A stretch of 64,000 nt of DNA from a virus. Taxonomy: Duplodnaviria; Caudoviricetes. Made by a program: the position numbers and the translations under genes. Under the pieces are notes generated by a model, which had not been told where the DNA came from, made no database searches, and saw nothing but the letters and a program-made list of their open reading frames with translations. Within the stretch, counting starts at the first letter, position 1; every line of letters starts with the position of its first letter. Below are positions 14,737-47,148 of the stretch, piece after piece. The stretch lies in IMG/VR virus record IMGVR_UViG_3300021167_000128, positions 1 to 64,000 of that record; one strand, 5' to 3'.

Positions 14737-14764
14737 TTGACTCCAGGCTGAACTGCTGTATAAT
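14737..14764 (+). promoter_or_regulatory. Sigma70-like promoter of tRNA-Leu and the ncRNA array
   Basis: TTGACT-16-TATAAT, overlapped by the inverted repeat GGCTGAACTG/CAGTTCAGCT. Confidence 0.65.
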
Positions 14765-14786
14765 AACTACTTCAGTTCAGCTTATA

Positions 14787-14871
14787 GCCTCTGTGGTGGA
14801 ATTGGTATTCACAAGGGACTTAAAATCCCTCACCGTTAGGTATGTCGGTTCGAGTCCGACCAGAGGTACCA
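14787..14871 (+). tRNA. tRNA-Leu(TAA)
   Basis: GCCTCTG/CAGAGGT acceptor, loop CTTAAAA, variable arm, TTCGAGT, ACCA. Confidence 0.92.
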
Positions 14872-15612
14872 ACAAGTAGAAGAGTTATTTATAGGGCGTC
14901 ATAATATTAGAAAGAAACGAGTGCCGGAGCTTGGATCTGGAGATAGTTATGGCTTTGAGTGGCGACGGTCACTTATAGGGTGGTGGTTCGATCCCCCCCT
15001 CACGCCCTGCAAATAGCTTTTCTACTTGTTGGTGAATGCGCAGGCTGATGCGCCTGTGTGGGATCACACTTGGCTAGTCCATGCCGGAGATCAGCACCGG
15101 CCACCAACAAAGCAGTTCCTCCGTGCTACGGGTTAGGGGTTCCTAGCCGACAAACGGAGGGCCAACATTGAAGCCCTGTGCGCAATAGCGCGCCTCTGGT
15201 ATCCCGGTAGCTGCCGTGAAGCGTGGAAGAGACTTTACTGTCCGTAGCGGGATGGTCAGCCGGTGCCGAGCGCGAAGGTGTCTAAATCCGGTTCGCGTAA
15301 CACAGGGCTTCAATGTTGGTGAATGTGTAGGCTGATACATGCTGTTGAAGTACTAACGTGAAGGCTAAATAAACCACACTATCGGTAAAGCCGGAAGAAG
15401 TCAGTGCCGGCCACCAACAATCTCTCCGGTGGATTGCAGCGGATGGAAGACTGGAAGAAGTCGGGCGTGTCAGTGATGCCGCCCTGTGAGGGACAAAACC
15501 CCGTTCCGGTGGAAGGCCGGGCCAACATTGAAGTACCTTGAGCTGAAAGAAATAGCGGTCAAAGTAAGATGTCGAGCGAAGCTGTGGTCACCCGGAAAAG
15601 TAGCGGGTCAAC
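14872..15612 (+). ncRNA. Array of unidentified structured non-coding RNA modules
   Basis: GC-rich, no credible ORF, two 19-bp stems, two homologous modules with compensatory changes, repeated CCAACA junctions. Confidence 0.75.
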
Positions 15613-15729
15613 AATATTTAATAATCTCACAAATAGTTAAGAATTAACTGCAGTAAAGTCCTACTTAGACTGTAAATAAGTAATCGTAACACATCGTAAT
15701 TATCGTTACTATAACAAAGGAGTAAATAC

Positions 15730-16386
15730 ATGGAAGAAAATAACGTAAATCCTTATGAAAAAATTGAAGGTATGCTGCAATATGTTTGTATCCGGGATGC
15801 AGTCAAAGCTTATCAAAAGCCTGGAACTGACCCTAAGCCGGATGAATGGAAGGTCAGTATTGTTCTTACGGATGAGGATTATGTAGATGCTCTTGAAGAA
15901 TGGGCAACTAAGATTGATTGTAAGCTGTCGCTAAAGAAAGTTAAATCTGCTTCGTTTGAAGAAACTTACAAGACCGCACCTCCAGAAAATGCAGGTAAGA
16001 ATGTGTGGGTCTGGACTCTGCGTAAGAGCGTAGAACTTGGTAAGACAGGTAAGCCCGTTCCTGACAAGTTTAAGCCTAAAGTTTATCAGCGTAAAGGTGC
16101 TACTCTGGTAGATATTACCAATACTGCTCTTGTGGGTAATGGATCTACGGGTGTTGTTAGTACTGATCTATTTGTTCGTAACAACGGTTCTGTTAGTATT
16201 TATCTCAAGAATGTTCTTGTTACGAATCTAATTGAGTGGATTAAAACTGATGCTAGTGATTCTTATGTAGAAGGTTCTGAGTTTGAAGATGTAGTTCAAC
16301 CTCAAGTAGAAGTTAATAAAAACTCTACTAAAACTAAGGTTAAGCAAGAAGATCCTGAAGAAGATCTAGAAGATAGCCCGTTTTAA
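15730..16386 (+). CDS. Single-stranded DNA-binding protein (T7 gp2.5-like)
   Basis: Acidic tail ending in an aromatic residue (EEDLEDSPF); VGNGS motif; replication context. Confidence 0.7.
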   Translation: MEENNVNPYEKIEGMLQYVCIRDAVKAYQKPGTDPKPDEWKVSIVLTDEDYVDALEEWATKIDCKLSLKKVKSASFEETYKTAPPENAGKNVWVWTLRKSVELGKTGKPVPDKFKPKVYQRKGATLVDITNTALVGNGSTGVVSTDLFVRNNGSVSIYLKNVLVTNLIEWIKTDASDSYVEGSEFEDVVQPQVEVNKNSTKTKVKQEDPEEDLEDSPF

Positions 16387-45660: not shown

Positions 45661-47148
45661 TTATTGCGCCGCGAGGTCCGACAGCAGCACGTTTTCAGCG
45701 TTACCGGCGTCGATATGGGCTCGGATTGCAGCCGCAAACTGCCGGAGTCGATTCGTCGAAATCTCAATCGTGCTGGCAGCTGCATCGACGCCAACAACTT
45801 TGTGCAATTTGATGTGACAGTCCGCCCGCGCATCCACTGCGCTTTGTATGCGAGCAATCACGTTTGTGGCGTTCGTCGCCTCGTCAGTGCTGCTCCATGT
45901 GTGCCCGACACAATTAAGTGTCATCCGGTAGGGATTTCGGCCCGAAATAAGATCGGTGCGGTACTTTTGGAAAGCGTTTTCGGTAGTCCCAAACCCTGTA
46001 TTAATTCCGAGATCCATCAGCAAATACAGCAAGGAATCATCTGTCAGGCTTTCGAGATAGCGGCCGGTCGGCCATACGTATGTCCGCTTGCCGTTTTCTG
46101 TAATAAGCCCGCGATCGGCAAGCCACTGGATGACGCCGAGAATGTCTCCGGCTCTTTCGGGGTTAGTTATCCAGGCATCAAAAAGCGACCCATTCAAGTA
46201 GCCGGGACGATTCGGGCCATGTGGCACGCATTCGTTGCCCCCCGCGACGTACATCCGCAAATCAGCTTCAGTCACAAAACCGGGTTGTCCGACACGCTCA
46301 GGGATGACTGCAAGGGACGACCGCAGGCCGTATTCGTCGAGTATCTTCTGCCCGATATGAATGAACGAGGGGTACCCGTCATCGGACCGAATTGCAATTC
46401 GCGCCTTACCGCCCAGCCCGCCACCCGTAACCGAGCGGAACCAGATCGTCCCGGTTTGCCCGTTCAGAACAGCGCAGCGGATTTTCCCGCCTTTCCACGG
46501 GTAGTCTCCAGCGTTGCCCGTAGTGACTCCTGTTTTTCCCAGCATGTCCCCGCAGACGTTGTAATGCGACATTCCGTTTTTGACTGGGGATAGTGCTGTA
46601 GTCGGGCCAGCGAGGCCGCCGTAGGAGCCAGTGATGTACGTAGAGTACGTGCCGTTTGATGCGGCGGTCGTGAAAAACGGATACACGCCGACGAATTTAG
46701 TGCAGTCCTCGAAGGCCATTTCGATCTGTATCGATGTTGCCGAAAACCCTTCCGTCAGCGTCGGGAACAGCAGCTCAAACGCATTCGCGGTCGCATCCGT
46801 GGCCGTCGCGGTGACGCGATAGCATTGTTCTCCCTTGTACGTCTCCCAACCCTGCGAGACGATCGTGCAGTTGGCCTGGGGCACGGCATTGAGTGCGCCG
46901 CCCGTGCTGGGGTCGAACCATGTGAACTTCTGACGTGATCGTGGGGCACCTGCGAGCTGAATACGTCGGCCCCCGATTTCAAGGTTCAGCGGCGCCGCGC
47001 CGAACACGCCGGAAAGTTTTCCAATCCCCTGGGCCGAGTTGCTTGCAGTAACTACGTTAGCCATATTATAACTAATGTTCTTACCGTCAGATTTCTCAAT
47101 ATCTACCTGACCAGTTTCATCATTAAAATTCATTTGTTTTACTGTCAT
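45661..47148 (-). CDS. Chimeric protein with C-terminal polysaccharide deacetylase (NodB/CE4) domain
   Basis: IRSDDG, ECVPHG, IKLHKV motifs; first ~30 codons AT-rich, remainder GC-rich. Confidence 0.75.
   Translation of the reverse strand: MTVKQMNFNDETGQVDIEKSDGKNISYNMANVVTASNSAQGIGKLSGVFGAAPLNLEIGGRRIQLAGAPRSRQKFTWFDPSTGGALNAVPQANCTIVSQGWETYKGEQCYRVTATATDATANAFELLFPTLTEGFSATSIQIEMAFEDCTKFVGVYPFFTTAASNGTYSTYITGSYGGLAGPTTALSPVKNGMSHYNVCGDMLGKTGVTTGNAGDYPWKGGKIRCAVLNGQTGTIWFRSVTGGGLGGKARIAIRSDDGYPSFIHIGQKILDEYGLRSSLAVIPERVGQPGFVTEADLRMYVAGGNECVPHGPNRPGYLNGSLFDAWITNPERAGDILGVIQWLADRGLITENGKRTYVWPTGRYLESLTDDSLLYLLMDLGINTGFGTTENAFQKYRTDLISGRNPYRMTLNCVGHTWSSTDEATNATNVIARIQSAVDARADCHIKLHKVVGVDAAASTIEISTNRLRQFAAAIRAHIDAGNAENVLLSDLAAQ

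Follow-up and report, generated by a model that had tools for sequence, protein, structure and literature searches.

What does a phage genome encode in a stretch that holds no open reading frame (ORF) of note, and in which two tRNA-shaped RNA modules can be drawn? The question is raised by positions 14737-15730 of a 64,000-nucleotide (nt) window, namely positions 1 to 64,000 of the IMG/VR virus record IMGVR_UViG_3300021167_000128 (Duplodnaviria; Caudoviricetes), whose 80.6-kb genome is complete with direct terminal repeats. The original prediction, made from the letters of the window, had drawn here two modules sharing a closing stem, a hairpin, a variable middle and a last GCCGG..CCGGC hairpin, with the loops of the two hairpins pairing with each other. 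The layout is present in the sequence of both modules (15027-15109 and 15314-15419, + strand), and comparison with homologues shows that each is the gene of one member of a large family of structured, non-coding phage RNAs, whose constant part we call the frame and whose variable middle we call the insert.

In both modules the closing stem (stem P1) consists of 8 bp, TGTTGGTG/CACCAACA, with the inner part (U)GGUG/CACC(A), and lies at 15027-15034/15102-15109 in module 1 and at 15314-15321/15412-15419 in module 2. It is followed by the junction AAU (AAT in DNA) and then by stem P2, which pairs 15038-15041 with 15050-15053 as GCGC/GCGC in module 1 and reads GTGT/ACAT (GUGU/ACAU in RNA) in module 2; the covariation that had been predicted for this first hairpin is thus real between the two copies, and it is also found across homologues. 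The loop closed by P2 (loop 2) is identical in both modules, AGGCTGAT as DNA and AGGCUGAU as RNA, and the inserts that come after it, 29 nt in module 1 (15054-15082) and 49 nt in module 2 (15341-15389), are mutually unrelated. Each module ends with the 5-bp stem P3, GCCGG/CCGGC (15083-15087/15097-15101 in module 1), which abuts the 3' strand of stem P1 with no spacer. P3 closes loop 3, which is AGATCAGCA (AGAUCAGCA as RNA) in module 1 and a 12-nt form, AAGAAGTCAGTG (AAGAAGUCAGUG as RNA), in module 2, the same long form recurring in other frames. Loops 2 and 3 are complementary and could form a kissing interaction (the kiss), GCUGAU:AUCAGC with six Watson-Crick pairs in module 1 and GCUGAU:GUCAGU with four Watson-Crick and two G-U pairs in module 2. 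The two frames of the window are 83-106 nt long and are registered in the repeat listing as D1, D2, I10 and I11. Within the window there are two occurrences of the 23-nt 5' pattern, the only ones in the whole 80.6-kb genome, and the 27-nt 3' pattern is found at the same two places only in the genome, the shuffle expectation being 0.00 for each.

To define the family, the 5' pattern alone was used in searches of IMG/VR and of bacterial genomes (one per species), which gave matches in at least 119 IMG/VR contigs and, on the bacterial side, in at least 120 species, most of them Gamma-, Beta- or Alphaproteobacteria. Among the matches listed the scaffold is constant and the middle always different, and the fixed scaffold with an exchangeable middle that the original prediction had seen in two copies extends to hundreds of homologues. 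A covariance model (R1) built from a MAFFT alignment of 48 short members (A1) finds both window modules, with 82.4 bits (E 1e-18) for module 1 and 70.6 bits (E 1e-15) for module 2, as well as further frames. In a second alignment (A2; 98 frames from 100 other loci), which was realigned with R1 and is hence biased in favour of the fold, 97.4% of the stem cells are paired, versus 24-66% when the partners are slid. Double changes occur in 12 of the 17 pairs of A2, all three stems covary, and the outer four pairs of stem P1 carry 20-48 double changes each; A1, the MAFFT alignment, shows the same covariation for P2 and P3. The inner 4 bp of stem P1 (GGUG/CACC), the AAU junction and the 8-9-nt loops are nearly invariant from alphaproteobacterial to gammaproteobacterial phages and prophages, and the near-invariance of unpaired loop bases implies that selection acts on more than the pairing. 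The roughly 40 G-U cells of A2 lie on the + strand only, so the fold belongs to + strand RNA. They exclude a double-stranded DNA site for recombination or replication, a reading that we consider, jointly with that of a riboswitch-like cis-regulatory aptamer, highly improbable. Taken across these comparisons, the fold of the frame is real and strongly conserved.

The kiss was examined in 75 distinct frames; in 76% of them the two loops are complementary over a run of at least five bases and in 64% over six, whereas with loop 3 shuffled such runs appear in 9.5% and 1.6%, respectively. Loop complementarity is in this sense kept among homologues. Covariation of the kiss, which had been claimed together with the pairing itself, is absent between the two window copies, because loop 2 is identical in them and loop 3 differs only in wobble-compatible ways; it emerges family-wide. 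When single changes were forced in loop 2, only nine contigs were recovered, among which L129 is compensated (GUUGAU with AUCAAC, a U-A swap) and L131 forms a wobble; the changes in the rest (L125-127, L130, L132 and L133 among them) are uncompensated and weaken a pure pairing model, though we read these contigs as rare damaged copies. A second class of frames (class B) was first met in L137: selecting on the loop 3 sequence AUCACC alone, loop 2 reads GGUGAU in five of six structured matches and GCUGAU in none, such that the step from the class A to the class B kiss is a clean C-G to G-C swap. The loop-linker lengths compensate as well, being 8+9 nt in class A and 9+8 nt in class B, and class B frames (L137, L163, L174, L205 and L240) have altered junctions (CAA, AGC, AAUC) and altered loop flanks while keeping the architecture. 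The kiss is thus well supported by comparative evidence. As a separate observation, loop 3 of class B together with the start of P3 reads GGAUCACCUCC, a sequence fixed by the search pattern and equal to the 3' end of Escherichia coli 16S rRNA. Loop 2 of this class, GGUGAU, is Shine-Dalgarno-like, and the kiss may in consequence copy the helix between Shine-Dalgarno and anti-Shine-Dalgarno sequences, or the likeness may be coincidence.

Loops 2 and 3 are complementary whichever molecule carries them, loop 3 has the 2-6-1 layout of the HIV-1 dimerisation loop, and the transcript of the window would carry two frames. The loops might then pair between molecules or between copies, giving dimers or larger assemblies as in RNAs of the ROOL/GOLLD type. 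We regard this as very unlikely, as most genomes have a single frame and the compensation of loop-linker lengths within the frame suggests an intramolecular geometric constraint.

The description of the modules as tRNA-shaped is a fair one, with P3 and stem P1 laid out as the T arm side of the molecule and P2 as the D arm. Compared to tRNA (RF00005), P3 continues into stem P1 as the T stem does into the acceptor stem (13 versus 12 bp), a three-base junction leads into P2, whose four base pairs and 8-nt loop make it resemble a D arm, and the loop-loop contact falls at the corner, where tRNA has its elbow. The insert is placed like the anticodon arm, which is also the site of a large insert in tmRNA, and frames are co-transcribed with tRNAs. 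In L140 a genuine T arm, GAGGGTTCGAGTCCCTC, replaces P3. The frame nonetheless differs from tRNA in having neither the T-loop and D-loop consensus (its loops being AGGCUGAU and AGAUCAGCA) nor an anticodon arm nor a free NCCA end; its elbow is a Watson-Crick kiss, and its stem P1 has 8-9 bp and no tail, versus the 7-bp acceptor stem. ARAGORN and the Rfam tRNA and tmRNA models call only true tRNAs and none of the frames. We rejected the reading of CACCAACA as a 3' CCA end, since its CCA is paired, and lost in L132, L137, L147 and L252. We likewise rejected a tmRNA (RF00023, RF04321), for which there is no Rfam match in the window and no tag-like reading frame in 14872-15700, the frame having neither a G3-U70 pair nor a CCA end. 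Templates of tmRNA-style tags do lie upstream of frames in phage HK620 (L122 2298-2330, ANEEMYLAVA*) and in Klebsiella phage P01 (L124 2308-2340, ANDNTFLAVA*), with weak Rfam matches to tmRNA or permuted tmRNA (E 0.3-0.7). A total of 717 phage records contain the tag-template piece, most of them lacking a frame (e.g. Felix O1-like phages); it is absent from the window and is a module separate from the frame.

Among cultured phages, the frame is present in HK620, in Stx2 phages, in P1-type phages, in Burkholderia phage CSP3, in Klebsiella Ackermannviridae and in the Pseudomonas phages D3, PAJU2 and PMG1; no frame was found in phage lambda. In HK620 the module sits between pR'/qut and the late terminator tQ, which bears out the link to lambdoid leaders made in the original prediction. 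In an Stx2a phage the frame comes after cI, and the 261-nt copy of Stx phages is found in 1761 of 5426 complete E. coli genomes (about a third), where it is never annotated. P1-type phages have two to three frames 3' of trnA-trnT, under plp and upl and on the opposite strand; in the P1-like phage RCS47 (L271) these lie at 1798-1930, 2228-2325 and 2489-2609, two being strong and one weak. Phage P1 itself (NC_005856) has the same region, and its plp and upl ORFs may deserve a second look. A tRNA follows 7-9 nt downstream of the frame in L007, L023, L026 and L056. Among 91 homologues, 19 are followed within 90 nt by a T-run or intrinsic terminator, 22 lie 15-56 nt upstream of ribosome-binding sites of unrelated genes, and no conserved protein neighbour is seen. 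The 22 copies just upstream of an ORF could be thought to favour the riboswitch-like aptamer mentioned above, the more so as conserved junction and loop bases joined by a variable linker resemble those of split aptamers such as ZTP. We rejected that reading, since the downstream genes are mutually unrelated, and many copies are followed by tRNAs or by terminators that do not overlap stem P1. In many IMG/VR loci (e.g. L009, L012, L023, L026 and L111) a further tRNA-like element often lies upstream, CGCAUGGGGAUUG...(often a T arm)...AGUCCCCAGCCG, with an acceptor-like stem GGGGAUU/AGUCCCC and with GCC replacing CCA, and small hairpins with the loop GAAAGAC are recurrent in frame-bearing arrays.

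Searches of Rfam 15 at permissive E-values, with 4 kb and with pieces of 176-416 nt, returned only tRNAs and noise and no match to the frame; a literature search by topic words and by the exact scaffold sequence, in a library that is incomplete, found no paper on it. The nearest named relative appears to be STnc100 (RF02076)/PasD. This RNA has the same inner closing-stem sequence UGGUG/CACCA, the same AAU, a first hairpin and a variable middle of several hairpins, and its last hairpin is likewise a 5-bp G+C-rich one that abuts the closing stem, with a loop, AGGCA, equal to the AG..GCA of the frame's AGAUCAGCA; the Rfam consensus starts with UGGUG...AAU and ends with ...CCGGGAGGCACCCGGCACCA. 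Both RNAs are borne by phages or prophages, near Q and tRNAs, and both occur in one non-coding region of Klebsiella phage P01. When R1 is run unfiltered on that phage, it fits the STnc100 core with 18 bits (E 8e-5, 401 nt searched); stem P1, AAU and P3 line up, and loop 3 is a shorter AGGCA in place of AGAUCAGCA. However, STnc100 has no central AUCA in loop 3 and has another first hairpin, and therefore no 6-bp kiss. The Rfam STnc100 model gave no match to the window modules at E up to 1 in 4 kb and up to 10 in 416 nt; its gathering cut-off is 47 bits, and the true STnc100 in L124 scores 53.6 bits. STnc100 and PasD were characterized by RIL-seq and Northern blot as abundant Hfq-bound prophage small RNAs (sRNAs) of Salmonella and pathogenic E. 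coli (PMC13192938), with RIL-seq targets but no known function (PMC13192938).

The inserts are hypervariable: 91 of them form 76 clusters, with lengths of 29-301 nt. Some are related and have covarying hairpins of their own, and some contain T-arm hairpins. The insert of module 1 recurs in L116, within a differently built array, where P2 and P3 covary around it.

Based on these observations we tentatively favour, at a confidence that stays on the doubtful side, the explanation that the frame is a stable tRNA-like body, cut from tRNA-operon or leader transcripts and acting in trans, with the insert giving specificity. The frame would be L-shaped, with the 8 bp of stem P1 continuing into the 5 bp of P3 like acceptor and T stem, with the D-arm-like P2 locked to the loop of P3 by the 6-bp kiss, which would stand in for the tRNA elbow, and with a variable RNA insert in the place of the anticodon arm. 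In the window both frames would be transcribed with a tRNA-Leu from a strong promoter as one non-coding precursor of about 900 nt, which host RNase P, RNase E or RNase III together with exonucleases would cut into stable pieces. The frame may lend its cargo a tRNA-like, nuclease-resistant stability, and the mature RNA may act in trans, with the insert as the specific part through base pairing or protein binding, as proposed for STnc100 and PasD. We read the context as that of tRNA operons because of the promoter and tRNA-Leu of the window, the tRNAs downstream of frames, the trnA-trnT pair in phages of the P1 type, the T arm of L140, and the presence of one further domain (S2b, described below) before either a frame or a tRNA.

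Several points weigh against this explanation. RNase P prefers a free 3' NCCA tail, which stem P1 does not have, and the inner CCA is lost in the four loci named above; loops and AAU junction are conserved to a degree that a frame serving structure alone would not call for; and a terminator or U-tail such as Hfq-bound sRNAs use is absent from the window frames. The link to STnc100 is weak, given its 18 bits in a targeted search of 401 nt and the failure of the Rfam model to detect frames. Finally, target prediction for the variable middles, which had been proposed as a check, did not bear fruit: duplexes of the window inserts with the start regions of the phage's own genes are no better than those of shuffled inserts.

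Alternatively, the frame itself could be the working part: as a mimic of tRNA it would bind, or titrate away, some conserved factor of the host and tolerate the insert at a solvent-exposed site. Candidate targets are enzymes that process or modify tRNAs, toxins or defence nucleases directed at tRNA, and factors associated with the ribosome. The loops, AAU and inner bases of stem P1 are nearly invariant where pairing alone would suffice, single changes in loop 2 are very rare (nine contigs versus at least 119), and the inserts are hypervariable in both sequence and length; with no conserved protein neighbour, any partner would have to come from the host, and tandem copies would fit a dosage effect. 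We consider this possible yet distinctly less probable than not, as class B changes junction and loop flanks and keeps the architecture, which argues that shape, and not a site bound sequence-specifically by a protein, is what is selected, as some inserts are conserved across unrelated arrays (as in module 1 and L116) and have covarying hairpins, and as no binding partner is known.

The whole non-coding array is headed by a sigma-70-type promoter, TTGACT-16-TATAAT, with 11 of 12 consensus matches (14737-14764, +), and the first gene of the operon is a tRNA-Leu(UAA) with an encoded CCA (14787-14871, +; called by ARAGORN, 56 bits with the Rfam tRNA model). The roughly 780 nt 3' of this tRNA have 53.6% G+C, versus 36.4% in the 80.6-kb phage genome, and the array is strongly structured, with a minimum free energy z-score of -5.9. 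Next comes domain S1 (14872-15026, +), a cloverleaf-like fold with a T-arm-like hairpin, recognized from inverted repeat I1 and its folding and with no match in Rfam. S1 is closed by a 32-nt long-range helix (I1; 14868-14899 with 15002-15033), inside which 14890-15012 form an acceptor-like stem AGGGCG/CGCCCU and the T-arm-like hairpin GGTTCGATCC, with neither an anticodon arm nor a CCA; ARAGORN and Rfam made no tRNA call on this fold. A similar tRNA-like element in L116 also has no anticodon arm and likewise ends in TGCAAATA. Between S1 and domain S2b lie the first frame and a minihelix (15117-15167, +; fold z -2.5, repeat D3), in which a 7-8 bp stem CCUCCGU/ACGGAGG surrounds a hairpin and is followed by GCCAACA. 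S2b (15162-15319, +) has a 19-bp closing helix (15162-15180 with 15301-15319, inverted repeat I2) and leads into the second frame. The 3' part of the array (15420-15650, +), delineated by repeat D3, inverted repeat I6 and its folding, holds hairpins, a second GGGCCAACATTGAAG (15519-15533) and the CACCCGGAAAAGTAGCGGGT hairpin, and no intrinsic terminator was found between the array and the next ORF at 15730.

S2b is a second, separate conserved RNA family of phages. Its core in the window is GGTGCCGAG-N3-GAAGGTGTCTAAATCC, and that of the family comprises GCGAUAGC, ACCUCUACGG, GGAAUAGAC and GGUGCCGAG-N3-GAAGGUGUCUAAAUCC inside a long closing helix. With one exact pattern it was recovered in 19 IMG/VR contigs (L090, L116, L134-L150), and it has no match in Rfam. 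Directly 3' of S2b lies a kiss frame in 10 of the 19 contigs and a tRNA in two. The TGTTGG strand of each stem P1 is also able to pair with an upstream CCAACA that ends a long helix, and a third candidate partner with CCAACA is CCAACATTGAAG at 15522 (15522-15533); with the sites at 14868-14899/15002-15033, 15162-15173, 15308-15319 and 15522-15533, each strand has two or three possible partners. Further arrays show the same three-way agreement with different sequences (CAUCA/UGAUG/CAUCA in L138, L140, L142 and L149), from which both pairings seem to be selected. The alternative pairing might serve to switch the fold, or the helices might be two processing stems for RNase III, which those of 19-32 bp do appear to resemble.

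The arrangement invites the reading that the frame acts only in cis, as a piece of tRNA-like punctuation that guides cleavage or shields neighbouring RNA ends, with no function in trans. Such an element would be expected where frames are found in the 19 and 22 of 91 cases given above, just before intrinsic terminators or before ribosome-binding sites of unrelated genes; it would agree with the position directly after S2b in 10 of 19 arrays, where a tRNA is able to replace the frame, and with the frames at the 3' side of the tmRNA-like RNA in HK620 and Klebsiella phage P01. The RNase III-stem-like helices that close S1 and S2b moreover share TGTTGG with stem P1. Against this, punctuation needs neither a hypervariable structured insert nor near-invariant loops, ordinary tRNAs and hairpins already do the job in the same operons, and tandem copies (in the window, in the P1-like RCS47 and in L111) are hard to explain, so that we hold a purely cis-acting processing or stabilising element to be rather unlikely.

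Several other known RNAs were compared with the frame. The rnaC and rnaD RNAs (species 1 and 2) of phage T4, judged from annotation and sequence, and RNA1 and RNA2 of T5 are stable RNAs that are likewise small and structured, share transcripts with phage tRNAs and in some cases have a T arm. We rejected a relationship to the T4 RNAs, as R1 finds nothing in the T4 cluster, there is no similarity in sequence or frame, and they have no kiss. The c4 antisense RNAs of phages P1 and P7 and the CI antisense RNA of P4 are reported to be cut from precursors by RNase P (Hartmann et al. 1995; Forti et al. 1995). These RNAs (the C4 clan) share with the frame a closing stem with two hairpins, tRNA-type processing and variable loops that give specificity; the two loops of c4, however, pair with the target mRNA and not with each other. 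A further candidate, rydB, was discarded, since its Rfam model matches the P3 hairpin only (13.7 bits) and E. coli RydB has neither stem P1 nor P2; the hairpin GCCGGAGAUAAGCGCCGG of E. coli K-12 rydB (L396 6723-6739) is nearly identical to the frame's P3. GOLLD and ROOL, which are large ornate RNAs, are also phage borne, often beside tRNA genes, multi-domain and built with kissing loops (PMC12286853). They differ in their length of 500-800 nt, versus 83-106 nt for the frame, and the window array is instead a chain of separable, freely recombining modules. The Rfam models of the c4 clan, GOLLD, ROOL and self-cleaving ribozymes gave no match to the modules at E up to 1-10.

Beyond the array, the 80.6-kb genome codes for a family B DNA polymerase, a primase-helicase, RNA and DNA ligases, a ribonucleotide reductase, a portal protein and a terminase. 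Comparison of the locus via the upstream 433-aa protein gave one relative only, with a contig that ends inside the gene. Two other G+C-rich islands were noted in the genome: a 495-aa ORF at 45661-47148 of the window (- strand), which adjoins the portal gene, has no Pfam match and reaches 56-62% G+C in a genome of 36%, and a region at about 80100-80600 of the genome, beyond the window.

Going a step further than the trans-acting explanation, the frame could be a general phage platform in Alpha-, Beta- and Gammaproteobacterial phages, a tRNA mimic that the host's machinery handles like a tRNA and that is loaded with fast-evolving cargo RNAs aimed at targets of the host or of rival phages. We consider this unlikely; if true, the cargos would be guides, decoys or sponges against tRNA- or RNA-directed defences, or regulators of host genes, and the frame would represent a programmable RNA arm of phage-host conflict that went unnoticed in phages P1 and HK620, in Stx phages and in a third of E. 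coli genomes. Even short of this, the frame is among the most widespread phage non-coding RNA structures without a name, being absent from Rfam 15 and unannotated in textbook phages such as P1, HK620, D3 and Stx2 phages. It would link the Hfq-bound STnc100/PasD to a far larger family with a defined three-dimensional logic, namely a tRNA shape with a kissing-loop elbow, and may explain why late leaders and tRNA clusters of phages contain structured stretches that look "empty". Being natural, probably very stable and tolerant of inserts of 29-301 nt, the frame could also be a useful scaffold for RNA expression, and its function is directly testable in laboratory phages.

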